Source: Haplodiscus bocki
Lineage: Eukaryota
Assembly (NCBI GenBank): GCA_965655095.1
Contig: OZ296651.1
Coordinates: forward strand, 36,890,001-36,954,000
DNA length: 64,000 bases
Direction: 5' to 3'
Part shown: one piece after another, positions 31,053 through 62,500 of the stretch
Numbering within the stretch: the stretch's first letter is position 1
Layout of the letters: each line of letters begins with the position of its first letter
Notes under the pieces: generated by a model
Told to the model about the DNA's origin: nothing
What the model saw: only the letters and a program-made list of their open reading frames with translations
Databases searched by the model: none
Translations under genes and position numbers: made by a program

Positions 31053-31244
31053 TGATGTGTGCAAACTTTAATTTTCAGCCCCTTCAGTGTGCAATCTCCA
31101 CTCTCTACTTTTAGTATTTTCATTCCTTTTACGCACACATTCTTTTTCTATTTTGGAGGCAATCCCATATAAATACTAATCATCAACAATTAAACAACAG
31201 CATAAAACAAAGTCTAACATGCATACAAAACAGTCCTGATAACT

Positions 31245-33538: not shown

Positions 33539-33541
33539 ATC

Positions 33542-34070: not shown

Positions 34071-34089
34071 AATATAAATTGCACATTTT

Positions 34090-34485
34090 CATACAAAGAT
34101 TGAAAAATAACATATAATTAATTATAAAGGAGAGTACATTAACATCGTGAACTCTGTAATTTCTTCCTTTCGAAACTTGAAGAGATGAAAAGCTGCAAAT
34201 ATTGTATAAAAGCCGCATACACTTGGGTGAGACTGTAGGGGTGCTGGCATTATCCGCTTGTTGTGCTGGTTGTTAAGAAAATTGTACCCTTTACATGCAA
34301 GGGAGTCTGCAAAATACAAATCATGTCGGAAATTTGCAATCATGATCCTATGACCCCCCGGCACACTTTTGGATTGCGTGTTGATAAGGCAAAAGTGGGA
34401 CATAGTCGGAGGGTAACGAACCGAGGTATCAAAATTTGAGCAGAGGTATACGGTTGATAATTTGTTGCTTAGCAAAATTATCCAC
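34090..34485 (-). pseudogene. Adenain-like cysteine protease (PRO)
   Basis: INTQ..PGGH(W/R)I, YFADSL and LQSHPSVCGFY give the His-Asp-Gln-Cys catalytic order. Confidence 0.85.
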
Positions 34486-34487
34486 TT

Positions 34488-35838
34488 TTACACATTCTTT
34501 GCAACAACACCAAACTTGTCAACTGCAACCGACGACATTCGTTCACCCATTACAATGAGTTCAGTAAAGTTTTCAATAGGGTGGGTAAAATTCAGTTCCA
34601 GCCTCAGTGGTTCTCTAACAAGTTCAGGATAGTGACACTTTTCAGTAGCGTCTTGCCTTGAAGTCAAGTCAAAGACCAGTACACAGTGACCTTTAAGTCA
34701 TCAATGGGGATTGAGGGAAAATCATCCTGAAAGTTCACTGCTTTCATGGTAGTCACATATAGACAACAATTGTCAGCAGTATCAAAATCGACAATTAGTT
34801 GTTCCGCTCTGAGTATTCTAATTTGTCTGAGATCAAATTGTTGATACCAGAATGAGTTTTCAGTAAAAGAACCAGTGAAGGCAGAGTTTGTGTTCATTGC
34901 AATTGCGACTCAACGAATGGGAGCATTGTTGAAAATGTTTCCTTGAACGAATTGGTTTTGTCTCGCAGGTATGATGAATGTCTTTGCCAAAGTCTCCAAT
35001 TAATTGTATTTTAAAGGAGCATAAGCAAGCATGTCCATTCATTTTTTGTGATAATCATCCTTGAGAGCAATACGACGAGTGTAAAGTCGAATCCACAATT
35101 CCAAGACTAACATTGGGGTTGTCGCTAATTATGTAAAAAATTGGTGTAGCTCTAATTAGTTGCAACCTGATTTTCATTTTTGGATAGAGGAGTTCAGAAG
35201 TTCTAAAAAAATCAATCCCCAATTTACCATACAACATGAAACCGTCGGGTCTACTGAACAATTTCATTCTCCTTGTAAAAACAAGGATCAGATAGGGGGT
35301 TACTAATATCCTCAGGATCTTTTCATAGTCATAACCTTCACAATGCAAAACTCCCTTGTATTCAGAGATGGCTGTCTTAAAGTTAATTGAAATGTAAAAC
35401 TTGTGTGCGTAGCGTCCATTGGAATTGTAAATCTGCTGATTGTTAAAGTACACTTCAACATTTGAAAGAATTGATTGCATTATGTTGTTTACATAGGTAA
35501 CTCGAGCAACTTCTTCTTGTTCTTCTTCGTCTCTTCCTGTTTCAGTGAAAACAACAGACTCTTGTTTGTGCTCTTTTTTCTTTTCCTTAATCTTGTATGT
35601 ATCGTAGCTACGTCCTCTGACAAATTTGAGCTTCAATGCTAAAAAAAGACTGTCTCAAATCAACGTAATAGTTCCGATCCGTCTGAAATTCAAACTCTAT
35701 GCAGTTTGCATCAAGTGAGGTAGTAGGATAAATTTCTTGTTCATGCGAGGACAGGACATCGTCAACAATTGGGACTTTCCTTCCAAGATTTCCAGACACT
35801 GCCGCAAAAGGATGGTACCGAAAACTGTTGTTTGACAT
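34488..35838 (-). pseudogene. Major capsid protein (double jelly-roll, hexon-like)
   Basis: IYPTTSLDANCIEFEF..YYVDLRQ, NNIMQSILSNVEVYFNNQQI, GKLGIDFF..LLYPKMKIRLQLIR and AFTGSFTENSFWYQQFDL are typical of Maverick/adintovirus MCP; position between protease and penton fits. Confidence 0.8.
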
Positions 35839-35840
35839 GA

Positions 35841-36195
35841 TCAACGAGAAATGTTTGTAAAAATGTCTCTTCGCGACCAAGTGGATTGTTTAGTAAATTT
35901 TGTTGGAAAGATTTTTTTCTGTTTACTACCGCTACCCATTTGTTTTTCTCAGAGTTTGCTTTCCCACACTCTTTGCAGCAGTCTTGAAAGATTTTCTACC
36001 GCTAATAACGTCTACAATCTCTGGTGCAGCAAACTCCAACATGTCAGCACTATGCGTTTTGCCGCTTGGACAAAAAAATTACGCAAAAAGGTAATTGCTG
36101 TTCTCCCAATAGCTTGTGCAAGAGCCCCAAATCCCCTTCCCCTGTTTTCCAACCGCTCTATAGTATGGAATTTCTACTTGTCTTGATGCAACCAT
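35841..36195 (-). pseudogene. Small basic virion protein with GxG/FGAL amphipathic helix (core or membrane-lytic-like)
   Basis: With frame correction reads MVASRQVEIPYYRAVGKQ..GFGALAQAIGRTAI..AAKR..GRKSFKTAAKSVGKQTLRKQMG. Confidence 0.55.
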
Positions 36196-36213
36196 CTCGT
36201 AGTTTTGTATGTG

Positions 36214-37018
36214 CTAGAAATGAATGTTGGACACTTTTCCAAACATCAGTAGAAACCGAGTGATACCGACAGATACAAGGGGTATTTTTTCACCAGATGT
36301 GTCTCTCAGATCAATATGTAAACTATGAAAACATTTCTTGAGCAGAGGTCTAAACTGTAGGTTACTGAATGTCTGATAGTTCATGTACTGTCCAGTTGTT
36401 CTAAAGTCTCCTCCCTTTAGCTTTGAGATAAAGGGAAAGCAACGTAGCAAGGGAGCTTTTGTGTCTCCAACAAGGTTGTACTCTACTAGATCGCTGTAAG
36501 TCTTCAGCGAATGGAGACGAACAATGTCGTACGCAAATTCGGGTTCATGAGGACCTTTTCCTATCCTCAGTACCCCAAATTCGTTTCCCACATTGTTACC
36601 AAAAATGTGACCCAATTCGGTGCTACAGAATGCAAGACCAGAGGTATCGTTTGCAAGCATAGTTACAAACTTTTGCGTTCTGCGAGCAAACTTGACTGTT
36701 ATGCAAGTTTCGTTGTGGTTGTTTCTCTCTTGAATAAGCATTTTCATAGCTTACACAATATCTGTGATGGAAGTGTATAGACCAGGTTCTAGATTGTAGC
36801 TCGTCGTAGATTTTGAAAGTTTCTCGTCAAAAAACTTGAAATTTCCCTCCGTTATTTTTTTGGTACATTGATGGGTAGGATATCTCCGAAATTGCAACCT
36901 CCCATTGACTCTCCAAGTTTACTTGCTCTGGTAAAAAGTTTGTAAAAAAAACTGAGTGTATTGTCTGAAAACATTTCTCCAGAAGCGTTGGAAAGCACTC
37001 TATTGTAAACGAATCCGT
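36214..37018 (-). pseudogene. Minor capsid protein (penton-like)
   Basis: FTNFLPEQVNLESQWEVAISEISYP; YSDLVEYNLVGDTKAPLLR; IDLRDTSGEKIP. Confidence 0.85.
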
Positions 37019-37020
37019 TG

Positions 37021-37958
37021 TTAAATGACTTTAATCAGCTCTTCTTGACAAAAGTTGCCTTGAATAACCTCATCCTGCTCATCCTTCTTTGTGTATGTTG
37101 GTGGTATTCTTGTTGCAATTGCTACAATTTCAAAAGCTTCGCTTGTAAACTGTCTGTGGTCTTGTAACCTTTGCAAAAAGGCAAATCATACTTTGAGATT
37201 GGCACTCTATCACCAATTTTGAATGTAGGTTTTTTGTATTCTCGTTAAGGTTTACTGTGAAGAATAAAAGTTGCAATTCTTTACGGTATTGGGTCTCGTA
37301 TCTATCGAACTGTTTCTTCTAGAGATTAAGGTAGTGATAAATTGAGGTAGTTTGTGTATACACTTGTATCTATAATCTTCCATGTAACGGTGAAGTAAAT
37401 TTTCAAATGATCGTTTTGTACGTTCAGCAAAAGCCGCCTTATTCTCACTCATAGTAGAGTAAACTTGTATCCCCTCGGCAGCACAAAACTTTTTAAACGC
37501 TCCAGCAAATTCAGTTCCCTTGTCAACCCAAATCTTTTTTGGTCGATTCCTTTTTGTAATCATGGATGAAAAGGCTTTTACAGTTTCTTGTGAGTCTTTT
37601 GTTTTCATTCCTTTAGCATTTACAGTTCTATGAAACAAGTCTTGACGAACTAGTAAGCACTTTACACCGTTATTCTTTTTTGCCAATTTATCAACGTAAG
37701 CAAGATTCACGCACCAAATTTCATTTCTGAATCTAGCACAAGCCCTCATTTTCCTGAATTTTCGTGTTGCCAAAGTAAAGTCTGCATAAGAAGCCTTTGT
37801 ATATAAAACTGTCTCACCTTTGATACTGGTAATCTGCTAGCTTTTGCCAAGTTGTGTACAGAACCGTAGGCAGCAGCACCTGGCATATACAGTCTTTGCA
37901 GCTTCTGACTTTCAAACTTTGAAATGGACCCAGCTTCCTCTATCTTTAGCTCTGGCAT
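37021..37958 (-). pseudogene. Retroviral-like (rve) integrase of the Polinton
   Basis: AYGSV, NEIWCVNL (D mutated), PKKIWVDKGTEF, KAAFAER, FKIGD. Confidence 0.92.
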
Positions 37959-38322
37959 TCTGGTTAAAAACTAGAGAGGATTATATTCCAGCAGCGTCGA
38001 GTAAAGTAAAGTAAATGTCTGGAATGTTTACGTTTTTTTGACGCAAATGTAGAGTAAAGTCTGAGATTAACACTCCAGTATCAAAACCATCTATAATTAT
38101 TGTTTGCGAATTTGGAAGTTTGATGCCAGAACAGGATAAAATCTTGTCTATTAGGATGTCTGCTTTACCAAACAGTCTCTTGTTGATGTCTGTTTTTGGA
38201 AAATCAATTTGGTACGTGGTAGGTTGTTCAGTTTTTTATTTCGGAAGTTCCTGCTTTGTAACAGATTGCGTAGTCACACTCTTATTATACACAGAAACTA
38301 GCACAAGAACAAACTGCTCCAT
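37912..38322 (-). pseudogene. Polinton ORF of unknown function between ATPase and integrase
   Basis: MEQFVLV...IPDIYFTLLDAAG..NQNARAKDRGSWVHFKV*; single frame with two internal stops. Confidence 0.5.
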
Positions 38323-38323
38323 A

Positions 38324-39288
38324 TCAAGAGAAATGATTAATGACGGGAAGTGTAATGACGGCCAATAGTTGCAATCCTTTTTTGACGACAAAACGTTTCT
38401 TCTTTGATTCCAATTTGTTTTTTTTTAGCAATAGTAACCAAACTTCGTCTCGAAACATTACCACGTGAGTCTTTTTATGTCCTGCGAGTTTCTTTTGAGC
38501 AGATTTACTATGCATTGGCATAAAAACCGGATAAACTCTTTTGGGCAAGACTGAGTAAAGTGGCCTTTGCATTTGCGGGAAAGCGATTGGAACACATGGA
38601 GAGTAGAGAGATTTTGTGTGTTCATTGTCCAAAATCCTTAAGTGCTTTTAACGTTCGGGAATATAAAATTTCGACGGAACAGATCCACTGTTTGTGCAAT
38701 AACGTAATCTATCGTCTCTCCGCGGAGACAAATCAACCAACAAATGACCAAAAGGAACAGACGTTGCATCTCGATACCAGTTAACTAGCTCTGAACCAAG
38801 ACCCAACTGTGTGCTAAGGGTAGTTACTTGCATTAGGTCACGGGGAAACTTGAAGTGAACAATGTGAGTGTTTTGTAACTCAACGTCTCTTTCTAGTTTG
38901 CTCTGGTGAAAAAGGTTGTGTTTAATGTAGATTGTGCTCAGACCCCGATGTCTTCCAGCGGTGGCAATGTCAACAAAAGCTTTTGATTTGCAAATTTTTT
39001 CACAAGAGGCGTCAAAAATTAACAAGTAATTTGTAATTTGTACCGTTGTTTTTTAACGAATCAACAAATTCGAAGTTTACTCACTGCACAAACTCGAGAG
39101 TTTCAGTTTCCTTTCCCATAACATCCTACAGATGTTGGGAATGTTGATAAAAAAAGTAATTTTTGTCAAACTTTTTGTTCAATTGGTCCAACATTCAGCC
39201 AATTGTAAACAAACTGCGATTTTGCAGTTTCGGAAGGAACAACCAATGAAATAAAAACTAGATTTTTTGTAGAAATTAAGTTATTCAT
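38324..39288 (-). pseudogene. A32/FtsK-like genome packaging ATPase
   Basis: Degenerate Walker A VPSETAKS (GPSETGKS), Walker B LLIFDAS, ATAGRHRGLSTIYIKHNLF, PFGHLLVDLSP. Confidence 0.88.
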
Positions 39289-39593
39289 AATCTTGGTGAT
39301 GGTAGAACGTATCCTGCCCCAAACAGTTGATTCGTCACAGGTTTTTGAAAGGTGATTTCTGCAAAAGCAACCAAAGATAATCAACAAAATGACAAAAGTT
39401 GGGACAGAAACACAATCAGCGATCTGGAACAGGTTTGTCCCAAACAGGACCACGATTTCCTCTCTTGATTGTTGTCGTCAAAAAAAATTCTACCTAGGTT
39501 AATATTATCTTCCAGTTCAATGATCTGTTCCATAAGCTCAATTTCTCAAAATGAATGCTATTGAAAAAATCATGTCGAGTTGAAGGAAGTAAA

Positions 39594-40088
39594 TTAGTAG
39601 TAAACACAAATACAATAAACACGTACAAACCTTACAAATGTTGCAAAGCCCATTCTCAATACACCTTTGCTTTCCTTCTCGGCACAGTGAAACCTTGTTT
39701 TGTGTCGGAAAGGATAACTAGAGGAGATCCACGAACTGTCCGTTTTAACAAAATCTTGAATTTTAAGGCAATCATAGTCATACAAATTTTCTACATTTTG
39801 TCCGAGGAGTCTGGTTAACAGTCTACACTTTTCGAGTCCTTTAGCAAACACTTCTGCATTCATTACCTTTATGTCATAAAAGACAGCAAACAACTTGACA
39901 TAATCCAGCTTTCCACTACTTCACGCAATTCCTTGTAGATGACTTATAATCCATATTGTCTGTTTATTAGGTTTAAAAGTCTTTGGCGGACACAATGAAA
40001 TTCCTTGCAGAAAACCATCAATAAAAAGTCCCAGTTCCCTAATTATGTTTTTCTCAGTTAGCTCTATATCTACTAAAATCAAAGACAT
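39594..40088 (-). pseudogene. Possible DEDD-type exonuclease-like accessory protein
   Basis: N-terminal LVDIE..IIRELGLF, HLQGI.W..G, AKGLEK and C-terminal HCA resemble DEDD ExoI and downstream motifs. Confidence 0.45.
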
Positions 40089-41269
40089 ACTGATTCAAAA
40101 GTCAACAGAATTGAAAATGGAGGGTGCAAAGAATTTTACGTAAAGACAGAATAGTAGCCCAGTCACATGACCAAGCAAGCAAGTGTTTGGTCCTCGCCCA
40201 ATCATAAAACAGTAGCCAAGTCCTTAGCCAGTTTGTGATCGAACAGCTCCAGCAGCATCATGCAATATTGCAAGTAGTCTAAAAACTTTCGAGTAACATG
40301 ATATAGAGTCCAAATAAAATTTTCCATAACCAATTTTTGTCTTCCCTCTTGAACACCTTTAGTTTAATATCCAAAAAGTTGGAGTCATTTTTGGACCAAG
40401 AAAATTGTCCGAATCTTTCTTGACGCTTGCCAAAGTCCACATAGTTGGTGCAAGACAGTTTATCCAAGGTTGCTGTAGTATTGTAGGCCATGGGTGAACG
40501 ACATAGAATGCTGGTTGTTGAAAGAAGTGATTCATTTTTGTGAATGAAAGCTAAAGAATGATTTTGGAGCTGCATTTCGTTACTTATATACGCACCGTTT
40601 TTATTCATTGTCACGTGACATTCCATAAAAGGAGATTCTTTCCATTTCTGGTCATTGTCACATGACATTTCCATATATGGAACCTCTTTCTTTTTTTGGT
40701 AGGTTTGTACATAAAGTAATAGAATCTTCTTTTTTTTCAGACTCATTTTGTCAATTTTCATAGCAGCATTCAGATAGCAGCCATTATGTTACAAACGATC
40801 ACCAGCTTTTACACAAAACTCTCTGAAAAAATTCTTTTCTGCAAATACAAGTGGAAAATATATTGTTTGTAAAGACTACTGCATCGCCCATCACGACGAT
40901 ACGACGTGTTTTTTACCCGCTTGTAAATATGATATTATACTACTTGGAAAGGTTGAAGAGCTACTAAAGACGTTGGATACATTTTGCTTCACCTATCAAC
41001 CCGTGGTTGTCTGTATACACTATTCAAGTATCGATTCAGTGCAAAAGTTATTGCAAAGAGTGGACAAGTGTTTCATAACGTGCAGCAAGCAGTTGACTTT
41101 AACCAGAGAAACAAGGGAGTGGACAGAGTGCCGAGCATTGCAAAGAAGAGCCTCTTGCCGAAAGAGTTCAAAAACACTTGTTCAGCTCCTTTCAGAAGAC
41201 AAAAACAACGCAGACCAGCGGATCAGTGTTTGCAGAAAGAATTGAACAAGTCAAAAGACTAAATTCGAG

Positions 41270-41566
41270 TTAGAACTGATAAAAATTGTACATTGTTTTC
41301 TCGATGGTCTGGGTAATTATGATAGTAATATAACATCTCGTAAAAATAAACTGACCAATTTCTGAAATCCAAAGGGATTTGTTTGAATCAATCGGTAGTG
41401 CAAATGATATAGTCATCATACTCATCAGGAACCCAATTGCCATAAAGAAGGCAATAACCAAAAAGATAGTACCAAACGTGGGACAAACACATGCCACACA
41501 TAAGAAATCTTTTAACCCCAAGCCATCGTCATTTTCCAACAAGTTGCTTTTTGATTTTGGTAGCAC
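41270..41566 (-). CDS. Small membrane protein (Polinton accessory)
   Basis: Long hydrophobic stretch FLCVACVCPTFGTIFLVIAFFMAIGFLMSMMTISF. Confidence 0.4.
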   Translation of the reverse strand: MLPKSKSNLLENDDGLGLKDFLCVACVCPTFGTIFLVIAFFMAIGFLMSMMTISFALPIDSNKSLWISEIGQFIFTRCYITIIITQTIEKTMYNFYQF

Positions 41567-41599
41567 TTTGATAATATTTCAACGAGAATCTGAAACGAT

Positions 41600-42170
41600 G
41601 GTTTGAAAAGCAGATTTTGAATAAAAAAATTTTCAACGCGTCAGATTTTGAATGAAAGTTTTTACAACGCGTCAAATTTTGAATTAGAAATTTTACAACG
41701 CGTCAGATTTTGAAGATAATTAATTTTTAAAAAAGCATGACCTTGAAAAAAAATATATTTTTAAAAAGCACGATTTTGAAGAAAATATTCTTTTTAAGAA
41801 GCAGGTTTCGAAAAAAATTTTGCACACAAGAAATCACGTTTTGGTTCAGTTTACCCCGTAAAATGCGCGCAAATTTTGCCATTTACGCGCAATTTTGATA
41901 AGCACCGTTTCAGAAGGAAAAAGTTTTTCAAAAAAGCATGATTTTGATAGTAAAATTTCTTCTAAAAAGCAAGATTTTGAATGAAAACGTTTTTGTAAAA
42001 AGCACAATTTTGAATTAAATTTTTTTCGTCTTGTCAGATTTTGAATTAAGAGTTTTTCGTTTTGTCACCTTTTGAATGGAAATTTGTACAACGTTTCAGA
42101 TTTTAAATCAACTTTTCACAATGTGTAAGCTTTGCTATCGAAAATTTTACGCGTCAGATTTGAAAGAGGA
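41600..42170. repeat. Short-motif array inside the Polinton
   Basis: CAACGCGTCAGATTTTGAA variants (~41633, 41665, 41696, 42088, 42149) interleaved with AAAAGCA(T/C)GATTTTGA variants. Confidence 0.7.
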
Positions 42171-42185
42171 ACAATTTACCAAAGT

Positions 42186-42440
42186 TCACCACATGTACTT
42201 CTCAAATCGTTTTCCTCCGTATAACCATGTACAGTTAAAGGCTACAATATCTTCATCAACTAGATAACAGCATTCGCCACCGTTCAAAAAATATTTCTTG
42301 TACTCTTTTTCGCATGGACTTTCACTTTTGATTCCGCTTTGGTCTCCGACTTTCTTCTCTGAATTTACTTGATTTATGCAAAAACCAGTTGCTGCTAATA
42401 TTGAAACTGCAACAGGTAATACATTTTTAATCTCACACAT
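42186..42440 (-). pseudogene. EGF-family growth-factor-like protein (hydrophobic N-terminus + one EGF module; 3 Cys mutated)
   Basis: C-x7-[F]-LNGGE-C-x10-[F]-N-C-TWLYGGKR-[F] has EGFR-ligand spacing CX7CX5CX10CXCX8C; each F is a TTT codon, one base from TGT. Confidence 0.8.
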
Positions 42441-42523
42441 GTCTGACTAGTTCTTGAAAAAAAGATATGATAAAATGAAACACGGTAATTATAATTTATA
42501 TCAAAACACAAACACGGTAATAC

Positions 42524-43175
42524 TTATCGAAACAATTTTTTAAAAACATAATCGGGTACATTTTCTATTCCTGCTCCAAAAGTGCAACTTTTCTGCAACC
42601 TGGGAGGTTCCGTGGGTCCGACAGACTTGGGTGTTGATGGACGAGCATTTTCCTTCTCTTCTTTTTTGTCCAACACAATGGTTTTTTCAAACTGATGATC
42701 TCTCCATCGATAAATCGTCAAATGTAGTTGGAGAAAAGGGGGTGTCTACGCCTGGTCTGAACACTGCGTCCATGTCGAATTGTGAATTTTCCCTGTTGAA
42801 CTCTATGTCTTCCAGATTGAATACTTGATAGCTGCTAGTGTCCAAATCTTGATCCCCCACACTGGAGAGTACTTTCTCTCTCTTCTCCATTGGTCCCTCT
42901 TGGTTCTGAGTGATTGGCATTCGTGACAGAGGATTATCCAAGAAATCTTGCTTTTGAGACATCGGCAATTGCCAGGCAGCTAGAGGTATTTTTTGTGAGG
43001 TGATTGTTTTATTTTGAACGAGATCAATTACTGCAATATTAACAGAGTCGGGAGCAAAATTGAGAGTCCACTGGATTCCGTCGTTGGAGACTGAGAAAAT
43101 CATGTTGCTTTCAGGTAGACTGAAAGTGTATAAAAAGATAATGTAAACGAAGTTTTGGTTAAATGTATCAACCAA
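42524..43175 (-). pseudogene. Polinton accessory ORF, unknown (frameshifted)
   Basis: ORFs 42687-43175 and 42524-42721 overlap and appear to be one gene with a low-complexity acidic/Pro-rich C-terminus. Confidence 0.4.
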
Positions 43176-43191
43176 TGAGGTGTCGACACGA

Positions 43192-44109
43192 TTATGCCAT
43201 AAATGGAATAACTTCTACCTTTTTTGGTTCAGGTTCGGATGTGCTTGGTTGTGATTGACGGAAAAATTTCTTCAAAAATGGAGATGGCTTTTTATTTTCG
43301 TAGTCGCGGCTCAGCTTTCTTGCAAGACAATGTGTACCACCACCACCAAACAACATAAGTGTCGGTTTCTGGCCCTTGAAAGGAATATTCAAAACATGGC
43401 AGCAAGCTGTGCACTTTTTACATTTGTAGAAACTAGTCGTTTTATTGGATGAAAAGTAAACACACTTTTCAGTTCTACATGTTGGACAATACACATCTCC
43501 AATAATCTGTTGTACTTTGTTGTCCAGACACAATTGTTTCTTTCTAAATTTGTTTGATTGAAATGGGACATTAGGTATCAATGGTCTGTTGGGTACCAAG
43601 TTCCTCTTTTTTTACCAAAGAAAAAGCGTGTTTTGTCTGCTTTTGTCGTCTTTATGTGCTCCTGTAATATAGAAGGAACTTTGTGAACAACCAGGCTCCA
43701 CACATTCCATAACCATAAATGAATCTCGGAGTTGTTACGTAACCGTCAAGAGATTCGCATTTCTTCAACTTGCCATGACAATACACATCTCCCATAACAT
43801 CTTGAATTGATTTTGGAGTCTTTTGAAAAATATAAACCACTTGACCAAGCAACAAGGAAAAGGAAATTGTTTGATCTTCAAAAGGAACATTGCGCACCTG
43901 ACACACAGATGCGCATTGCGGCATTGAGAATCGTTTCTGCCCAGAGATTGAAAAGTCTTTTTCTGCAGGCAAAGTTTGCCCGAACACTTTGTAATTGGAC
44001 AATACACGTCCCCAAAGAGAATAATAGTGATATTGTCATACCAATAATCAGGAGTGATTGCGCTACACATCGTAATTGCTCTCAAAAATGTCACACCTGA
44101 AAGCAACAA
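43192..44109 (-). pseudogene. Cys-rich repeated Zn-ribbon-like ORF(s) with GDVYC motif
   Basis: FGDVYCPITKC, MGDVYCHG..C and IGDVYCPTC..C..CKKC..C occur three times. Confidence 0.55.
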
Positions 44110-44695
44110 AAAATCGATTCTTGTAGAGATGTTTGATTTCAGGGTAACTCAGGTTGACAACTTCTGTGAGAATGACTTTATCACCGTGATGTTCAAACTT
44201 TTTGACCGAAAAGACGCAAAGATTGTTCATTTCAAACCGGAACAATATTCGAATTTGTCTGTTCAAATGCTCAACTATATCCTTGTAACAATGACTGAAC
44301 AGTTCGTATTTTGCTTTTGTAAATCCAATCTCAAATTTATGTGTGGGTAATGGAATCTGCGATACTTTGTTGGCTTGATGAGAAGCTTTGAGAAATTCAC
44401 CCAAAGTGTCGAGTAGAGACTCAAGTTCCCTTTCGCAAATGCTGGCTTCTTCCCTGAGAAAAAATCGCTGCTGTATCTTTGAATCGCAAAATTGAAACAA
44501 TTTCAATGCAAAAGATTTTTTCTTGGAACCTTTGCCTTTGCCAACTCGAACTATTCGGTGGTGTTACTGTAAAATGTCCAAAATGTTGTGATAAAAACAA
44601 CTATAAATGTTCGTTTTGTCCAAAAAATCTTCTGGTATTTCTTTGTATACTGAATAAAGTTTGCACAACCAGGAAATTCGTTTTTTGGTAGACAT
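44063..44695 (-). pseudogene. Polinton accessory ORF, unknown
   Basis: 147-aa open stretch plus a frameshifted upstream part; first gene of the leftward gene block. Confidence 0.4.
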
Positions 44696-44844
44696 TAACT
44701 ACTTACAAATGGGAACAGATTGTAAAATGAATTAAAAAGTAGTGTAGTGGTAAAAAAAAATGATCACTTTGATGGTGAATACTAGAATTTTCTAGAATAA
44801 ACCAATAAACAGTCATAAAGTTTTTAACCACTGCGCTAATTGTG

Positions 44845-45232
44845 CGTATATATAAAAACAAAAGGTATTCCTTTTATGGTTTGGATTGACACTTGATAAA
44901 AAGATATTTTTGTTCCACCTGATTACTTTTCGCAGTCAGAGCGTCTACTCGTCAGGGGAATTTGTTCCGTTTGGTTAAATTTCTCAGCCAAACTGTCTAC
45001 TTATCAGGGGGAATTGTTTCACTTGAGTAAATTTCTCAGACAGTCTGTCTACTTATCGAGGTACTTGTTTACTTTTCTCAGACAAACTGTCCACTTGTCG
45101 GGTGATTCAAGCTTACTTAATAACGTTGTCAGATGTTACGACTAAACATGAAAGGAGTGATTGACAGCTCCTTTTATGGTTGGCATTTCCTTTTATGGGA
45201 GGTACTTCCTTTTATGGTCTGTCTATATATGA
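44845..45232. promoter_or_regulatory. Putative divergent promoter with four CArG boxes, TATA-like elements and four ~50-bp repeats
   Basis: CCTTTTATGG at 44870, 45170, 45189 and 45208; TATATA at ~44847 and 45224; TTTCTCAG.CA..CTGTCTACTT.TC repeats at 44928-45102; lies between oppositely oriented gene blocks. Confidence 0.6.
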
Positions 45233-45346
45233 TAAAATAGATTAACGTATAGTGTACTCGGTTATCTCCATTTTTCTTTTCCATTGGTACAATCAAGTTG
45301 CTAAAATTGTTACGACAAGTTTCAGATTATTCTGCTTATTACAAAA

Positions 45347-48300
45347 ATGCCTTCCTTTATACGAAAAAAAAAAGTTGCTTGTGAACATTGTGGAACCCAA
45401 GTTACAAGAAACAATATTGTACGCCACGAAAAGAGATGCTAAGCTGGAGCATTATTTTGTACCCAATACCCCAACTTTTCAACCTTGTACCGGGATGATT
45501 TGAATTATCATACAGCCAAGAAACTTAATGTTTCAAGACCTTCATTAACATACAAGTTCATACTATGTCATGCAGAATTTCCCGGCTTTTATGCTCTACG
45601 TCAACACAAAAACACTAAACATGGAACACAAAATGTATTCGGAGCGAACAATAATGATGTGGGGGACATAGCGGGAGATGTTGAAAGTTTGAGAGAAGAA
45701 TTGGAATCTTGCAAACACTTTTTGACAGATACTGAATAGGAGAATGTAAGACACAGAGTCTTCAACTTTGCCACGTCATCCTTCGACATTCCATTGTTCA
45801 ACGATAAACTGGATTATATATTAAACGAACTAAAATGTGCTGCAAAAGTCAACTTTGCATTTGATTTCGTTCTGAAAAACATTGATGATGCCATGTGTAG
45901 ATACATGTACGCTCACGAGAACAATAATATTGTGGAAATATCTAAACTTGTGTGCACACAAACTGATACGACCAACTTGAAAGACAGAATGCAAAAAAAA
46001 GAACATTGTTGATAATTGTACCCAAGAAAGAGCCAATACAAAGTGGAAAGTTTACAAACTTACAAATTTAACATTTTTTCTTCTTTACTCAAAGATGTAC
46101 CCATGGGCTGTAAAGATACAGTCTTACCTTAACCACTTCTGAGAAACCATAATGTGAATTGTCCTACTTTTGAGAGAAATACAATAAAACCCTACAATGA
46201 TTTTCTCTGTTTGTTTAGAGCATTAGCTCTACAATTGCACGGTAACAGAAAATTAGAGGAGGAGACGTCGAGAATTTTCAACCTTTTCCTCAAAAACAGT
46301 GAGGAAAGAGAGGTCTCAAAATTCCAAGGTGTTCATTTGAATGACATTCGAAAAGTTGAAGACTTGTTGCAACTCAATATCCTCCTTTAGGACATTGATT
46401 TTGTAGATGGAGAGCTGATTGGTGAGCTCCGTCGAAGAAGTATTCAAAAGTATGAAAAAAGTGTCCAGCTCTTACGCTACAACAATCACATTTGCTACAG
46501 CAACAACATCAACGCATTGTTCAAAGCGTTCCGGTGTACTACGTGTGATACATTTTTCTCAAAGATGGGGCATTTGGATCGACATTTGGTTACCTGTAGT
46601 GATCGTGTTAAACATTTTTACGCAAAGAATGTTTACGAACTGTGAGAAACGCTTGTTGAAAAGTTGGATGCATTGAATATCCCATATAGAAATGAGCAAA
46701 AACTGTTCAAGAATTTGGCAATAAATGACTTTGAATCCATTTGTGTCAAGGAAACAAACTCATTCAAGCAAACTGAGACTACAACTTGGGTCAGGAAGCA
46801 TGTGCCCACATCAGTTTGTATCTCGTCAAACTTGATCCCGGAGCCCATTTTTCTCAACAAAGCCAATCCTCATCATCTCATCTCGTCTTTTATCACTGCT
46901 CTCGAAGATTTAGCAACACAAAGCTCAGATGAAATTAAATTTTATTGGAGTAGAGCCTGCAATCAAGATAAAACTGTGTGCTATACTGGAACAACTCAAC
47001 CAAAGACGCAACCCAGTGGAAAGGGTGTCAATATTTGTAGATGATTGTATCGTTGAGGAGGAGGAAAAGGATTTATCTACACAATTCCTGGAACTGCAAA
47101 AGAATCAATTAATTGACTTACAGGAGCATTTTGAGTGTTACTCCAACGTTTTACCATTCTTTGGATTCAACAGCGCAAAATACGATATTAAACTGATCAA
47201 ATCGTATTTGTTACCAATTCTTGTAAAAGAGCGAGATATTGAACCGACAGTTATGAACAAAGCTGATCAGTTTGCTTCTTTCAAGGTTGGAGACATTCAA
47301 TTACTTGACATTATGAATTTCCTCGGTGGTGCCACCAGTCTTGACTCTTTCCTCAAAGCTTACAAGACCAAAGGGACAAAAGGTTTCATTCCGTACGAAC
47401 GGTTCGATGGCCCAGAGAAATTGAAGGAATTCATAGCTTCCTCCCTATGACTCCTTTTTTAGCATTAAGCGCAAAAACAACCCCATGGAAAAAGGTTGCA
47501 ACGACTTTCAAAACCTTGTTAACAATGGTTTAACAACAGAGCAAGCAGTAGCCAAGTTACGATTGGATAGAATACCTCCGACTGGTGCTGAAAATTATTC
47601 GTATTTGCAAAGCGCCCGGGAGAATAAAAAACTGCAATTTTTTTCAGTTTTCCTCAAGTGGTATAACAATGAAGATGTTGTTTCGACACTAGAGGCAATG
47701 CAAAAATTGACTGAGTTTGACCACAACAACGGAATTGATATGCTAAAGCTTGAATGTACACTACATAATTTAGCCAATATTTGTTTGCATAAATCGACAG
47801 ATTCAAAATTTTATCCCTTCACAGACTCTGATAAAGCTTTGCTTGAGAAGATACGAGAAGATATGGTTGGCGGTCCTTCTATTGTCTGTACACGTAAAGC
47901 TGTAGTGGATGAAACCTTTATACGCAAATCACCAAACTTGTGCAAATCAATTCTTGGTATCGATGCTATTCAGCTTTATTCCTACTCAATATGCCAACCA
48001 ACGCCTACTGGATTTTATAGGTGATGGGAGTACGTTTCTGAAACTAAGACATTCACAGCTTGCCAAAACAAATCTCGCTCCCTTTAGAATATGGTTCTGT
48101 CATACTTTCGACAAAGTCAACCAGATTGCAAAATTGAGAGTAATGTTACTACTGGTAGACAAAAGAAAATTGATTGCTTCAAGGTAGATGGAATTTGTTA
48201 TCATTGTAACACTGTCTTTGAAGCAATGGGTTGTTATTTCCACTACTGTCCATGTCAAGAAGCTCGCCCATCATTGACTGACAACGAAACTATGAGAGGG

Positions 48301-49517
48301 ATATAAAAGAGAGAACAAGACCAAATGCGCAAAGAATATATCCAACAAGAAGGACACAAAATTAATGAAAGGTGGGAGTGCAATTGGTGGGAATTATACC
48401 GAGTTTATGCACCAGTCGAAAGTTATCTTCGAGCAAATTTCCCCTATAAACGTCCTCTCATCGAAGAAAAACTCTTGCAAGGACTTATCAATGGGCAACT
48501 CTTTGGTTATGTCCAATGTGATATTGAAGTGCCTGAACACCTGCGCGACTACTTTTGCAACTTTCCACCAATTTTCGAAAACACTGTTGTAAGTAGAAAC
48601 GATATCGGAGATTTGATGAAAGAATATGCAGAAAAAGAATGGATTATGCCACAACCAAGAAGAATGCTCATATCGAGCTTTATTCTAACAAATGGCACCA
48701 TCATAACTCCTTTGCTTTTATTCTATTTGAACTTGGCCTAGTTTGTAAGAAGATTCACCGGTTTGTTCAATACAGTCCCAAAAAATGTTTTGACAATTTT
48801 GTGCAGTCTGCCGTGGATGCACGACGACAAAGTCTTGAGAATACAAATTCCAGTGTTGTTGCCCAGACTATGTAACTACTAGCTAACAGTTTTTATGAGT
48901 ATCAGATCATGAATCGCAGTCGACACACAGTGACAGAGTATCTGACCGATGGAAAAACCCACAGTGCAATTAATAGTAAAACGTTCAAGCGGTTTAATCA
49001 CATGACTGATCTTTACTTAGTCTTGTACGAAAAAAAATTGGAAGATGTTATTCTTCCCAAAAAACGAGCGGAATGGGACCAGTTACGTTCTAAAGATTGC
49101 ACTGATAACTTTACTGCGAATGCTACCGACAATATTTTCCCCAGCACTTGCTGTAATGTCCACAAGAAACATGATAAGAGAGAGCCGGATCTCTTCAAAG
49201 AGGAGCGTAAATGTGCAGAAATGTTGTGTCTCTGTAGCAAAACATATTGTTGTGATGATAAACAGATTAACAAGCACAACTTTAGCAGCAAAGGACTCAA
49301 TAAAAGAACAATAGAAAAGTGTGGCGATGGTGGACCAATGTCAAAATATCGCAAATTCTTAGAAGAGGCAGTCAACGTTACTTCAACCAATCGAATATTT
49401 CGAACGATTCAGCATAGTGTTGCTACGTATGAACAAGCAAAGAAAAGACTCTCTTACCTTTATCTGAAAAAGTTAGTAGAAGAAGATGCAATACACACAA
49501 AACCCTTACATTTGTAA
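45347..49517 (+). pseudogene. Protein-primed family B DNA polymerase (pPolB) with N-terminal zinc fingers
   Basis: NDFES (ExoI), FFGFNSAKYD (ExoII), YNNEDV (ExoIII), VGGPS, IDAIQLY (motif A), LLANSFY (motif B), SKTY, SSKG. Motif C (DTDS) deleted; many stops. Confidence 0.93.
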
Positions 49518-49536
49518 GTTCTGATTGTAGTTGTAG

Positions 49537-50219
49537 TTGTTTGTTCATTTTCATACATTCTAATTATATTTTTCAAACTATTGCACAATCTTTTTAAATA
49601 GCGTTAAGTCATATCAGTGTCCGCACGCGTAATAAAATATCCGCAGGCGTAAAAATTATTAAGGAGCGTCAGCGGACGGCAGCACGGGCGGGCCTGCAAG
49701 AAAAAACAGTTCAGAAAAACCTTTTTCGGAATAGTCTCACAATACCGAAAATTGCCTCACAGTACCGAAAGTCCATATAATTATACATTGAGACGAACTA
49801 TAGCCCATGCATTACCGAATGCTATTGCCTATCTTAATACATGCATCGCCTATCTTAATACATTGAGTCTTCTTTCGGCTCCATATCTTAATACATGCAC
49901 TGCCTATCTTAATACATTGAGTCGGCTTTCGACTCCCGGCTCCATATCTTAATACATTGAACCGACACGAAAGGTCTCGACAGCTAATCACAATCGAACA
50001 CCCTCGGCAGCCAATCAGAATCGAGTATTTCGTCACCCGAGTCGTCAGCTAATAAGAATCGAGCATTACGTCACCCGAGTTGTCACCCCAGAGCTCTCGG
50101 CGCCTGGAGGTCTCTTTCCGGCTCTCGGCTCGAGTCGGCTCGCTATAGCCTATCTTAATACATGGGAACAAACATCCTCCTCCCCCCCCCCTACTTGATC
50201 AGCTCACACTCTTACTACT
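49537..50219 (-). repeat. Polinton right TIR
   Basis: Ends CTCACACTCTTACTACT; inverted homology to 33542-34070, with an extra TATCTTAATACAT array. Confidence 0.85.
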
Positions 50220-51495
50220 GGCACACTAGACAAGGCCTCGTCAACCTGACGGCCAGAACATGTTTTCTGGGAAACCATAGCCACTTGCTCACTCTTCGTC
50301 GACTCTGTTATGGTTGGCAAAGAATACACAGAATGAGATGCCACTCTATCTCCAACACTTGTCCCGGCCTGACTAGAGAACACTGACCTACTGGACGACT
50401 TTCCTCCACCTCTACCTCTACCAATTAGATTAGTTTTCAAGAGGAGGTCCTACAACATCTCAAATGACGCTAAAGACACTTCTAAACCTACAGCTCTGGC
50501 AAATTGTATAATCTGGTCTGAACTAAAGCTTGTTGTCTAATGTGTCGCATCCAAATGAATAGGAGGGTTATGTTCAAAAAAATCCTTCAATAAATTTTTC
50601 AATAAACTTTGGGATAGTATTTTGTACGAACAGCACCAATATCCGGCGGCCCTCCAAAGAAACCTACTGTAGGCACACGCACCATTCCATCACTCGACAC
50701 TACATGGGAACCAGGCCCCAACTCACCAGCATTTGCTCTAGCCATCATTTCCAACTCCGACAATCCGAATTCAGTTGAAGTTCTCTCTGGACAGTCACTG
50801 CTAAGTCATGACTTCACTGCATTAACTCTCCCAATTTCAATTCGCAATGCCACACTTTCTTCGTCGCTCCCATCTCCAAGTTCAAAGGTAACAATCTTTG
50901 GATGAAGCACACTTCCCAACTCAACCTCGGATCCAATAGCTTTCCGTTTACCATTAACACGAACAGCATTGTTTGATGTTGTCTAAGTCCGAATGATTCT
51001 CTCCAGGTAGACGGCATTATCCAAAAAGGTCACGTTTTCCGTAAACTGACCAGTAGTAACTCCTCTAACATCAGCTGTAGACCGTTCTTCTTCCAATACA
51101 GTCCCGAACTCTACTGGGGCATTTTCGATCAACTGCCGTAATTCACTGTCATCTAGCACGTCTAAGCCTTCACCAAGTAAATGACTCATGATAATATGAC
51201 TGTCATCACGAGTATCATCCTGAACGCTCTCAACAACATTGATCAAGTTAGGTACAATGACCCTCTCGGCGGACTCCATGTGGACTTCACCAACTGGCAT
51301 AAATTGCAAATCAACTATTCTTTTCTCGGTGGAGTCGTAACCACCACCACATTCCAAATCCGATTCGCTTCTTTAGGGAAGGTCTGGGAAGTTCTCAGTC
51401 CCTTCGGTGCTGCTATGCTTCAGCTCGTTGGATTCGTTCTCTAAACAAGGGAATCTAATAAATTTAGGTGGCAATTCGACAGCAAATTCGCCCAT
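50220..51495 (-). pseudogene. Antisense accessory ORF A of the Gypsy element, cut by the Polinton
   Basis: ATG at 51495 (MGEFAVELPPKF) is in frame with ORF 50983-51357 and continues through stops and a frameshift to 50204-50440 (..FARAVGLEVSLASF..); acidic, Ser-rich. Confidence 0.55.
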
Positions 51496-52432
51496 TTCGA
51501 AAACCGGACATCAATAAGCGGAAGCACGTGTTCATTCAAACTCAATTCAATCACGTGTTATCCTACTAGTGGAGAAAGGAAAATTTCTCTGGCCAAGCAA
51601 CTAAATTGCCCTCAGTTATCAAGTTGTTCTTGAATCAACATAATCTAACATAACAAATTGCATCAAAAAGCAACACTCAGCCAATTGTTAACAGCGACAA
51701 ACTCTTCTGACTCTCCACAAAAACCTGGTTTTTCCTCAGTCTACTCCAACACAAATTGACAGTCGCAATACTCCAAAACAAGTCCAACACAAACAATTAA
51801 CTAAACAAAAAACAATTCAAAAACAAAGTACAATAACAATTCAAATTCCGTCATTTTCTATAATATGAGATTCGTGGCTGTACGATATGGATTTTGTCAC
51901 AATATAGTCATTATTCATACTATATTACCTATCTAACAATATCTAAAAATTTACTATTTAGGTCAACTTCTGCCAGAGTTGCCTAACATTTGACCTTCCG
52001 TAATTCCGTTTTTACATCCTACATTAAAGCTTAATTCAATTTTTTTCATTTTTCCTCAAATTATTCAGGCTTCATGCTGATTGACTCTTCCTGTTACAAA
52101 AAGTGAGCTTACACTCACCAAAGTGAAGTGTCGCTTCACCTTCATCAACAGGGTCACTCGTGGTTATTTATGGCCACTCAAAACTGGAGTGTTACTATTG
52201 ACATTAAAAAAATTAGTTACAATCAAACATGAATCCTTTTAATCTAACCGCCTTAACCCAAGCAACCTGCTAAATTCAACGAAAAGCAAAATCCCGCAAA
52301 ATTTTCCACACGAAAACCCTCCAAAACTTTACCCAGCCTTCATTCATAGTTTCAACTTTCAACCAAACCAGTTGCTTCAATTCAAACAAACTTTCTTCAA
52401 TCACAGCACTACGATTTTTCTAAAAGAAAGCA

Positions 52433-53202
52433 ATGGCTGAAATGACCCCAATTTTCCTATTAGAAAAGATGAAGAACCGATGGCCACGGAGCCGATATAC
52501 CTCCTTTGCGATGAGAGCGAATACTCAACCCCCCATAAAACTCCTAACCATCATCATGAAACCATTTATCCTGATTCTATCAACCAACTACTAGCGTCAC
52601 AAATAGAACAACGGTCAAACTTGGGCACAGAGACCGTATTTTACCCACCGACCCCAAATACGTCTATGATATCTGACGATGAAGAACAATCGAATCTCAC
52701 TCCAATAATTGAAAACCCTGAACAAAATACATCGCAGATTCCGTGACGACGAAACCACCCAATACGAGTTTGCCAACATTTGCAGCCTGTTACAGACACG
52801 CCGGAATCGCCACCTCCAGAAGATCAAAGTCACAGAGACATTTTCCGTACCTACGATCTACCTAACCCATCGACATCAGCATCATATAGCAACCTCCCCA
52901 ATATCTCGACAGTGGCTGATGGGTTGCAAAATTTGACATTGCACGCCCATCCGGAACGCAATGAGTGGGTGAAGGGGTGTTTGGTCTGCGGAAAATCATA
53001 TGACCAGGTTATAGAAGAAACTGTTGCAGATTATCGCACCCAGACAGCTGAGCCAAGTGAGACAGTACGAGAACGTCAAATCAGAAGAAATGCTTTCATT
53101 GATTGTGTTCAGAGTGGAGTATTCACTTTTGTCCACCTGGGAGTGTCACAGGCTGCCGCCTGTGATGGCTTGATCTACTCTGTCAATTACAATTATTGTT
53201 AA
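52433..53202 (+). pseudogene. Sense accessory ORF3 running into the 3' LTR
   Basis: ORFs 52480-52746 and 52780-53202. The C-terminal domain WVKGCLVCGKSYDQV..FVHLG|VSQAAACDGLIYSVNY crosses the LTR boundary at 53144. Confidence 0.7.
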
Positions 53203-53806
53203 TGTTGCGATCTCAAGTACAATTGAGTTTTTAGAACAAACATGGTTTTTACTCGTGAGAAGAGACAGTCAAACAGAAGGCTCCTCAGCCAATTAGATGA
53301 TTTCGATCAGGATGTCATTATTGTTAATGTTGCTAGTGAAGAACGAGAAAATGCTGTAGTCAATGAAGGTAGTAATGACCAAGATTTTACCGTTGGTACC
53401 TCCAGTGGTAACTTAGTGACTAATGAAAACACGGTGAATCTGAAAACCTTGGAAAGATGTTTTAATGAAAGGATTGACGGGGAAATGAGCAATATTGTTG
53501 CTACGGTTGAAGACAGAATCCAGAAAGCATTTTTGACTGCTATCGATAGCATTGGTGCTCCTAAGATTGAATTAGCAATTAGGTCAATTAACGCGTCTTC
53601 TGGACGAGATGCGATCAGTGTTACAGCAAATTCAGAACGCGGGAAATATGTAAGGATTAATGCCTCTTTTAAAAACGCATCTGGAAACAACAATGTACTA
53701 CATGCATCAAACGTAAATGATGAGACTCGAAAAAACATTCTGGACGAGGTAAGTGAGTTGTCGGTCCCAGAAACACGTTTTGACCGGCAAACACACACTC
53801 ATCACA
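53144..53806 (+). repeat. 3' LTR with ~1.18-kb internal deletion (663 bp)
   Basis: 53144-53191 matches 22931-22978 and is joined directly to sequence matching 24157-24770; followed by TSD GCTGG. Confidence 0.9.
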
Positions 53807-59597: not shown

Positions 59598-62500
59598 TGT
59601 CACACGCTGCCGCCTGTGAGGGCCTGATCTACATAGTAAACTACGGCAGTCCCTGCACGGATCGGAGACTAAATCTTTTTGGTTTTTTCAAGACTAAATA
59701 TTGGCGGATTGTCAATGTGGAAAGACAAAAACGGAAGTATAAAATTTTGAACTCTTGTAAACACAAAATTTTCCCCATTTTCGTAACTCTGTAAGATTAC
59801 AACACTGGCAAGTCTGTCCCAATACAAAATTTACATTTGTTCTCTACTGAGCAACCTCAAAACTGAAAAAGATTGGTGCAACGGTTTGATTCTCTAACTT
59901 TTGCTCAACTCGTTCGAGTGAAATCTCAGCGCTGTAATGTTAGAGTTGTCAAACCACGTCACTAAAACCTAGTTTTGACTAATTTGGTCAAATTGACTGA
60001 TTGTCTCACTGCATGAAGGTAAAGACAGCAGAGATTGGTCGTGGTGACCATAGAGTTGCAAAAGTCAGTGAAAGTTGCTACGTATGCTTTGCATTTATAT
60101 ATTTCCATGAGACTACTTTATCATGGGAGAGTATATAAAAACAAACAATTTACTAAAATGCCCAATGAACCATTACTACAAATCAACAAGCCTTACAAAA
60201 TAGAAACATATAACTGAAGACAAGTCACAAAATAGGTCCTGGTGATCCACTCACTACCTTCGTTTCAATGTCCTTCTTGATTCAGAGCATATAGATCAAG
60301 TAAGGTGACCAAGGCCATAAGCTTTACATAGCCATAACATAACATGTCAAAGAGACTATTTTATTTAGAAGTGGATATGAACGGAACGCTAAGACTGAGG
60401 CTGTAACCAGTTGTCATTTACAGATCCTTAAGAATGATCACAAGGAAAATTGATTTACACATACACATTTTTGTCAAAAACGGAAACATTCTGCTATAGA
60501 ATAACCATTAAAGTCAACATTCAGAGCCAACTGAAAAAATAGCAGCCTTAACCTGTCCATTCGACTACGCTGGTACGATGAATGTGAGCCATACAGGGAC
60601 TGTCTTTGTCACATCATCAAGTGTCTGAGTTTGATTTTCCACTGAGAATGCCAACATATGAAATCTTGCTGTCGCAGAGCATGTGTAGTTAGAAGGGAGA
60701 GATTGAAATTGGAAATATTATTCGGTTCTAATTTTCTCTCTCGCTCAAGCGCTATTAAAGCAGCTGCCATCACAATTCAAACAGAAGTTTTGCTAATAAA
60801 CAGAAAGAGTCTCTAGAGCTTTTATCTCTCTATTTTCATTGCCTTGCTAGCTCCGCGAACAAAGATTGCGTAAGTTCGATAGCAAGGACTTTATGAGCGA
60901 CGAAAGGGAAAGAGAAAATGAATATAATCAATTATTCAGTCAGCCGAGGAAATCCAATATGTTCAAGTAAAAATGAAAGAGAAACAGCCCGAAATGGGAA
61001 CTGAGTCATATCTCAGTGCAAGTAATGCAGGTGGGGTAAGGGGGAAATCAGTATCTATTCCATATCGTTCGCAACAGCGGTCTCCTTATAGATTTACAAT
61101 TTCTTCAATCCAAGGATTTATCCCTCCATAGCTATTTTATCCCCTATTTTGTAAATAGTCCTGAAAATTCGTCGGCTCTACAGAAATTTATCCAAAGTAA
61201 CAAAAATACAAAATCATCAGAAATCGAGAACAAAGATGATCGAAATTAGGACGCTAACACATTTAAAATAGAAATCTTGAAATAGAATAATCATTTATAA
61301 AATTTTACAAAACTTCGGAATAGATAGAATCCATCCGAAATGCAAATAACATGAAGAATTCCAAAAAACCAAATTGTAAGTTAATCTCTAAAAAAACTCC
61401 CAAATATTGTTGTGTGGGATGCATTCAACGCAAGATAAAGTAATACGGGCAATTATTTTTCTTATTTGCGCCAGGCAGGAGACTTTGTTCTCCGACTTCT
61501 CTAGCACTGTTTTTTTTTTGTTTTTTATGGTTGGTTTCAATTTTTTGTTAGTTTTACTTTTTCTGTTGTTAAATTTATGTGATATATAATATCTTATCTT
61601 TTAGTCTACACTCAGTACTTGCGTTAGCATAGCAACTAATTCAGGTAGCTTAATTTTCCTCGAACTTTCCAAACCGTCAATAAATCACCGGATTTATTGG
61701 CGGGGTTTGATCTGTTTTAAATTTTGTCTATTACTCAAGTAAAAGCTCGCTTTCTGGCGTCAACCTGGTGATGTTTTTTTAGTCCTTTTTCCTCCGACCG
61801 AGATTTTTGCTCGGACTTTACGGATGGAATTTTTTAGAATATTGTAAATTGTCAGAGAGATATACTCTTTCTGAAGTAGAAAACTCTTTAGCTAACGGAT
61901 ACCTTTGATGGAGTCGGACGTTCTGCTGGTAACTCGGGGACTCTCCTCTTGTAGATTTGACTTGCGAAGGAGCTGAATAGGGAATTTCGAATCAATGGAG
62001 AGAATAGAATTGTTTGAATGTTACAAGGAAAAAAGACTTTTTCTGCATATTTAATCCATATCTCGGAGTTGAGAATGACTTCTAATACCACGGAAGCACA
62101 CGAGGTGAGATTTGATATTTGTAACGTCATTTCTCTTTTCCTAGAAAACTTTTGAGGGTCGTACAGTTTAAGATCCACTCATGCGTCAGAACCCGAGTTC
62201 GTCAGCGGAATCCGCACACACTATTACTGAAGTTGGCGTTAGTGGACACTTTTTAGACTCCAGCGGCAAGAGTATAGAATAAATAAAAAGTTGTGCAATA
62301 TAAGATTCACTCTTGTTTCAGAACCAAAGTTCATCCACGATATCAGCACACGCCAATGCCGCAGCTAGTGTTGGTGGACACCGTTTAGACTCCGGAGGCA
62401 ACAGAATAGAATTTGTAGGCAGAAAGAGGGAAAATTTTCTAAGTCAGAAAGAAAATGGGACTTAGAATATTTTTGCGAGATTGGAATGATTTTGCGATGG

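Follow-up and report, generated by a model that had tools for sequence, protein, structure and literature searches.

Extra open reading frames are common in Ty3/gypsy elements and, to our knowledge, hardly any of them has a function. The closest described systems are compared here on the basis of those parts of the cited sources that were available. In plants, extra ORFs between pol and the 3' LTR comprise gene23 of Grande, TRP28 of Retand and the env-like frames of Athila and Bagy2, the gene23 product being nuclear and its gene having its own promoter (PMC7264820, PMC11963269). In retroviruses, U3 is coding in the case of HIV-1 nef and MMTV sag/rem, and tas/bet of foamy viruses are expressed from an internal promoter (PMC12789967). 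LTR retrotransposons of bdelloid rotifers carry third ORFs that encode env, GDSL esterase, DEDDy exonuclease, transmembrane (TM) or coiled-coil proteins (PMC5408684), and planarian Burro carries accessory domains (PMC6431247). Phospho-SIM motifs, finally, are found in cellular and viral proteins (ICP0, LANA, K-bZIP, BGLF4; PMC12751080).

ORF3, the gene that we report from a Ty3/gypsy element of Haplodiscus bocki, resembles these accessory genes in layout and is a member of none of the groups. As in the plant elements, the region between pol and the LTR is long and contains additional conserved ORFs without known function, some of them antisense as in Retand and Grande. Here, however, the antisense ORFs adjoin a sense ORF that diverges from them and continues into the LTR, there is no TRP28 or TM match, and a SIM is not reported for the plant ORFs in the available parts of PMC7264820 and PMC11963269. 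With nef, sag and tas the gene shares coding within U3 of the 3' LTR, a small size and 3'-end position, and possibly an internal promoter. The first-pass annotation had compared it with nef, bel or sag, which is borne out for U3 coding but not for homology to Nef, Tas/Bel or Sag: in the searches made, ORF3 matched them neither in sequence nor, by Foldseek at E<=0.001, in fold, and its element lacks env and has the pol order of Ty3/gypsy. Moreover, Sag is a membrane protein, unlike ORF3, and the viruses concerned keep a purine tract where the ORF3 element has five purines and hairpins. The rotifer elements and Burro are likewise invertebrate, gypsy-like and equipped with non-canonical coding capacity, but their ORFs are recognisable captured domains, whereas ORF3 extends into the LTR and matched nothing in Pfam, PDB or the fold searches. 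The phospho-SIM proteins share with ORF3 a low-complexity region in which a hydrophobic core precedes Ser and acidic residues; the likeness is a motif match only, and ORF3 has no RING or kinase domain. No description of the ORF3 protein or its junction was found in the literature searched (which included few subscription papers and was without Repbase, GyDB and supplements).

The window, i.e. the whole stretch of 64,000 nucleotides analysed (36890001-36954000 of contig OZ296651.1 in the 1.5-Gb host assembly), contains the element at 22931..53806 (+), with two LTRs, TG...CA ends and a 5-bp TSD (GCTGG at 22926-22930 and 53807-53811). Its 5' LTR (22931..24770, +, 1840 bp, TG...CA) holds the ORF3 tail in its first ~100 nt and the gag start in its last ~565 nt. 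The primer-binding site (24771..24781, +) is an 11-nt match complementary to the 3' end of a tRNA-Leu that is encoded in the host genome, with one mismatch in the window copy. Gag and pol (24185..31049, +) are degenerate here; the domain order of pol is protease-RT-RNase H-integrase, as is typical for Ty3/gypsy. Antisense ORF remnants follow at 31407..33751 (-), including a weak zinc-finger-like part, and at 50225..51531 (-), the latter divergent from ORF3 and separated from it by a low-diversity region (51532..52432) that is a candidate internal promoter or leader. ORF3 itself runs from a conserved ATG at 52433 to 53192 (+), and the 3' LTR (53144..53806, +) carries a ~1.18-kb internal deletion at 53192/53193, with the gag start codon at 53242. 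The window element also contains a stretch of ~16.5 kb (33752-50224) that matches none of the element's proteins; an integrase-core frame (37252-37836, -) and 31-33-nt tandem repeats (41583-42107) are seen in it. Copies elsewhere in the genome measure ~14-16 kb, and six of them have the layout LTR (~1.8 kb), gag-pol, long antisense ORFs, sense ORF3, LTR.

Some further repeats were observed. ORF3 matches lie ~14 kb apart at C1:59909380/59923072, C2:73877980/73892082 and C11:45526829/45540925, the C1 pair being tandem elements with a common LTR. Matches to the 3' end of a tRNA-Leu, the one that fits the primer-binding site of the element, form an array with ~424-nt spacing at C1:161094516-161168975; there are 751 matches genome-wide, and one match outside the array (L302) was verified as a tRNA. 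In the window we noted a second degenerate element bearing a reverse transcriptase (12645-15864, -; RVT_1 E 0.00028), tandem units of ~1.46-1.6 kb that are 70-90% alike (1-3616) and a long imperfect inverted repeat of ~70% identity (54687-59527).

The five LTR starts that had been listed with their peptides are indeed present, at 4621, 17840, 22931, 53144 and 59598: a 25-nt start pattern derived from the copies matched four of them with at most 3 mismatches, against none in 100 shuffles. ORF3 lies upstream of 53144 alone; the other four starts are preceded by unrelated DNA. One of these belongs to a diverged related LTR (4621..6569, +; flanks ATAGT/ATTGT), probably solo, with both the ORF3 tail and the gag start; the starts at 17840..17864 and 59598..59622 (both +) are likewise diverged and without ORF3 upstream.

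The window's own ORF3 is broken, and 52433..53202 is not the single ORF as which it was first annotated: the frame shifts near 52466, two indels near 52686/52692 offset each other, and a stop interrupts the frame at 52744-52746, leaving only 52747-53202 open. Where their right parts can be compared, the two LTRs agree at 573 of 614 nt, so decay of this copy has been under way. Its stop at 53200-53202 results from the deletion in the 3' LTR. Nevertheless, the idea that ORF3 ends inside U3 holds for the family: counted from the Ser of SQAAAC, the stop comes after 32 codons in 54 of 89 copies, after 35 in 6 and after 26 in 7. The overlap arises because the gene crosses the 3' LTR junction. A protein search of the host genome returned at least 3465 candidate matches, and many of the 150 that were scored have open frames of 320-345 codons. 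Read from the ATG at 52433, the protein is ~270 aa long in other copies, and distant homologues also have their start close to this position. An in-frame ATG further upstream (52229) is unlikely to be the main start and was rejected: dN/dS is 0.77-0.83 over its 68-71 codons, 150 nt of the stretch are absent in 5 of 89 copies, and it is missing from the distant homologues. The frame between 52229 and 52432 is nearly stop-free across copies (0.3-0.5%) despite a dN/dS of about 0.8, and its synonymous diversity is low.

Selection was measured with pairwise NG86 on 89 natural copies (30 loci plus 60 more stretches out of the 150 scored matches), projected on one copy with indels masked with N and two near-duplicates dropped; intervals are bootstraps over codons, and the copies are related. 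For 88 copies picked by protein score, dN/dS is 0.13 (0.10-0.18) in the core (aa233-305), 0.32 in aa72-150, 0.44 in aa151-232 and 0.23 (0.15-0.34) in the LTR part (aa306-338), against 0.59-0.78 in non-coding controls, which fall below 1 because NG86 ignores transition bias. As these first copies were chosen by protein score, the test was repeated on 30 copies chosen by upstream DNA, with similar outcomes: 0.16 (0.11-0.22) for the core, 0.28 (0.17-0.42) for the LTR part and 0.56-0.69 for the controls. With rare alleles masked the value for the core is 0.05-0.07, which is comparable to pol (0.07; 7 rows). The mirrored frame on the opposite strand always has a higher dN/dS (0.31-0.52) and 3-6% stops; with transversions only, 4-fold sites of the core differ at 0.178 and second positions at 0.026; stops make up 0.2-1.4% of in-frame codons compared to 3-8% in non-coding controls. 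Selection thus shows that the Ty3/gypsy family has a genuine accessory gene in ORF3.

The tail inside the LTR is the weakest part of ORF3, and selection on it is moderate. Codons 314-338 have a dN/dS of 0.27 (0.16-0.40) against 0.56 (0.32-0.98) in a control past the stop. Among 42 diverged LTR starts the stop codon keeps its position in 27, with dN/dS of 0.49 (0.35-0.65) over codons 9-32 and 0.65-0.80 past the stop. A transversion test with rare alleles masked leaves a small contrast (0.041 against 0.025). In 11 of 89 copies a common LTR deletion of ~225 nt replaces the last ~14 ORF3 residues, and the core of this subfamily is still at 0.32 (0.05 masked; 10 rows). The subfamily consists of L022, L027, L124, L127, L136, L137, L140, L143, L145, L150 and L166; in five of these the 150 nt before the conserved ATG are absent as well. 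At the other end of the LTR, gag begins ~565 nt before the end and reads through the primer-binding site, which places ~188 of its codons inside the LTR (24185-24770 and 53242-53806). As the ORF3 tail (0.23-0.28) and the gag start (0.21-0.25; 34 rows) are both under selection, the LTR is coding at both ends, as the first-pass annotation had suggested. The gag start presumably resembles predicted proteins of acoel flatworms. In one predicted protein (P0087) the core of ORF3 is joined to the beginning of gag, probably as the result of an internal deletion.

The long antisense ORFs, which are also present in L111, L112, L113 and L119, are under purifying selection too: dN/dS amounts to 0.17-0.20 (5-6 copies) for those at 31407..33751 and to 0.23 (3 copies) for that at 50225..51531. 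Their zinc-finger matches are weak (PF18658, E 0.014), and they may resemble a hAT-type transposase remnant. TRP28 (PF04195) was not matched by any of the 11 antisense-region frames scanned, and a search for longer homologues of one antisense ORF found none. A SIM-like motif also occurs in one antisense ORF (3 of 8 stretches scanned).

The conserved core of the ORF3 protein (52930..53143, +) consists of the CxxC motif (52978-52989), confirmed to be in frame with SQAAACDG, and a predicted helix pair. With 39 sequences as input, AlphaFold predicts a CxxC knuckle and two helices with confidence (pLDDT 86-96, residues 81-120) and a tail below 50; at a mean pLDDT of 36.6, the model of the full-length protein is of no use. 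The CxxC suggests that the core may bind zinc. The core has a net charge of -1 to -5, and this lack of basic character speaks against direct DNA binding and against an activator that would work in this way. Counted from the conserved ATG, the N-termini are acidic, and the N-terminal region is probably disordered and rich in Ser and Pro; each protein has 3-10 Ser/Thr-Pro sites. No ORF3 family was matched in Pfam (with 0 of 39 members matching Nef, Sag or Tas families at E<=0.1), in NCBIfam, among PDB sequences by profile (best E 0.46, unrelated) or by Foldseek against PDB and predicted viral structures at E<=0.001. The ESM Atlas gave unnamed clusters at 0.90 only and otherwise no usable match, and the best VIA-align match (Z 5.2, rmsd 2.6, 48 aligned) concerns generic helix pairs. 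These results show absence of a match; they are no proof of a new fold.

Homologues of ORF3 do exist, as the profile search proposed at the outset shows: 499 representatives were found at E<=0.001, of which 150 were listed, and a search with P0243 yielded 91 proteins. The best host-genome match of P0243 is only 42%, hence its family comes from another genome. Distant homologues are 260-285 aa long at 30-45% identity and keep a fixed order of motifs: the N-terminal hydrophobic-Ser-acidic motif, HPI-x-x-C...DTP-x-SP, CxxC, the helix pair and, at fixed spacing, SQAAACDG. DNA of distant homologues was found in none of the viral contigs, and a metagenome protein scan was also blank. A motif scan returned six loci (three chance matches in GC-rich DNA, one LTR start, one own-type and one distant locus, L248), and a pattern search for diverged 3' junctions returned one solo-type start.

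The N-terminal motif provides the most concrete lead to function. It occurs in 47 of 62 own-type proteins (as IYLSSDE) and in 24 of 27 distant ones (for example IICLSSDEEE and VIISSDDEE), the 27 being related to one another and 0.16 being expected from their shuffles. The 10-codon block has a pN of 0.02, the lowest in the N-terminal 230 codons, at a pS of 0.66; in the window copy its position (52495..52521, +) is degenerate. A hydrophobic core followed by Ser and acidic residues is how SIMs are defined (PMC12751080), so the motif fits the description of a phospho-SIM and is putatively SUMO-binding. It is a lead, since SIMs are loosely defined and our pattern was drawn up with the sequences already in view. 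The host has a SUMO-like gene in a single open frame at L299:1462-1758 (-).

The conservation of this motif, which had escaped the first-pass annotation, points to SUMO-dependent regulation. Judging from the sequences, we consider it about an even chance (roughly 0.5) that ORF3 is a soluble nuclear regulator, not an env, that acts through SUMO and is likely anti-silencing or activating. Transcription would start from an internal promoter in the low-diversity gap, common to the divergent antisense ORFs; the protein would enter the nucleus, dock on SUMOylated chromatin factors via its SIM, and relieve silencing or activate the LTR, in trans on all copies. In Drosophila, SetDB1/Wde is recruited to transposons by SUMO-SIM contacts when piRNAs guide silencing (bioRxiv 10.1101/533091), and SUMO is put to use by SIM proteins of viruses (PMC12751080); together, these observations make a trans-acting transposon SIM protein plausible. 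The transactivator that had been proposed earlier is a plausible reading too. The SIM could equally serve repression or targeting. In the literature searched, a retrotransposon-encoded SIM antagonist in SUMO-dependent transposon silencing was not found.

Codon-structured conservation is found in the core and more weakly in codons 315-338, but not in the junction block (53125..53169, +; codons 300-314). Here pS is 0.03, whereas the other windows of 15 codons have a median of 0.44 and never fall below 0.14; synonymous differences in the motif are suppressed and not enriched. The first 24 nt of the LTR (53144-53167) form a stem of 9-10 bp with a 4-nt loop. This hairpin is part of the minimum-energy fold in 9 of 9 sequences (shortened in 4621, weak in 59598), with folding z from -4.7 (L248) to +1.3 and modest values for own-genome copies (-2.7 to +1.3). 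As it is palindromic, the opposite strand also reads SQAAACD. Across 197 oriented starts every stem pair is kept in 165-191 and the loop letters are fixed in 184-193; on the sense strand the two imperfect pairs take the form of G-U (172 and 161 starts), and two-sided compensatory changes are nearly absent (3 cells). The starts were chosen by motif likeness, which makes this count partly circular; the frozen third positions are not. Val before SQ is never replaced by Ile (0 of 65), as a TG start requires; this is no more than suggestive, because Ile is absent from one other Val column too.

ORF3 had also been said to read through the polypurine tract, and no proper tract is present. The LTR is preceded by a pyrimidine run and a small stem that ends in the purine run (GGGAG in the window); this run is 5 nt in 126 of 145 ORF3-bearing junctions and never exceeds 7. 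The tract length is given as 8-49 nt (PMC7264820), more than any junction examined offers. A small hairpin would thus replace the normal polypurine tract and, with the LTR-start hairpin, make up ~45 nt of junction. The same junction is found in diverged families within the host genome (loci L281-L298, 18 of 147 matches). At L248, TG stands at the same place behind GAGGGGA (7 purines, one base before TG), the hairpin is the same and differences preserve pairing; its sequence ends 79 nt past the motif, so its LTR is not proven. Its third base is the same in 4.5 of 7.5 motif codons and in 9.1 of 23.3 core codons, which lends weak support to nucleotide freezing. Rfam has no match at the junction. 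These ~45 nt also serve as a cis signal under nucleotide constraint, and may act in plus-strand priming or in recognition by integrase or RT. For codons 306-314 it is quite probable that DNA/RNA signals rather than protein function account for the conservation: a hairpin or att site, the alternative that the first-pass annotation had itself named, explains SQAAACDG, and not the gene.

Such a junction is what might be argued for ORF3 as a replication or integration cofactor, which would bind the junction hairpin or cDNA ends, aid plus-strand priming in place of a normal polypurine tract or direct the pre-integration complex towards chromatin rich in SUMO. In every family seen, gene and junction go together and the spacing from CxxC to SQ is fixed, the polypurine tract is reduced to 5 purines, and targeting would suit a SIM as well. 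On the other hand, the core lacks basic character, overlap requires no functional link, and similarity to nucleocapsid, integrase or chromodomain folds is lacking. We regard this cofactor role as doubtful, yet worth keeping in mind. The anatomy that suggests an anti-silencing regulator would also fit a SUMO-linked self-repressor that controls copy number by recruiting silencing instead of blocking it, as the SIMs of SetDB1/Wde do; strong purifying selection along with at least 3465 candidate matches is presumably easier to explain by a benefit to transposition, which leaves self-repression unlikely. Somewhat more improbable still is a Nef-like adaptor whose targets in the host would have nothing to do with chromatin (trafficking, degradation or cell survival). 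Disorder, short linear motifs and the many Ser/Thr-Pro sites would agree with it, and overlap with U3 is common to Nef (PMC12789967), but ORF3 is without N-terminal Gly or membrane segment and none of the 39 members has a Nef-type Pfam match.

That there is no functional protein, and conservation stems wholly from DNA/RNA cis signals, describes the junction block well (low pS, a hairpin, a palindromic peptide) and might seem to agree with the broken window copy; it is refuted for the core and, with high pS and very low pN in the ORF3 frame of both core and SIM block and homologues recognisable as proteins, we give it very little credit for ORF3 as a whole. An env-like fusogen, which the sense position between pol and the 3' LTR might suggest, is contradicted and hardly credible: the N-terminus is acidic, no env family or predicted viral structure is matched, and, as had been noted from the start, none of the 8 ORF3 proteins inspected has a hydrophobic stretch of TM strength (maximum Kyte-Doolittle 19-mer 0.93-1.44).

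Returning to the SUMO-acting regulator, a wider scenario can be sketched that we hold to be rather speculative. An animal Ty3/gypsy lineage might have arrived independently at the organisation of complex retroviruses: a bidirectional internal promoter would drive antisense genes together with a SUMO-binding anti-silencing protein that disarms repression of the piRNA/SUMO/SetDB1 type, and the plus strand would be primed without a normal polypurine tract, via hairpins in the last codons of ORF3.

It is unusual for an LTR to hold coding sequence under selection at either end, and a near-absent polypurine tract with conserved hairpins in its place challenges a feature held to be standard for LTR elements. 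The phospho-SIM-like motif of ORF3 offers a concrete handle on SUMO-dependent transposon silencing, and the gene is a testable candidate for explaining the very high copy number that LTR elements may reach in an animal genome.
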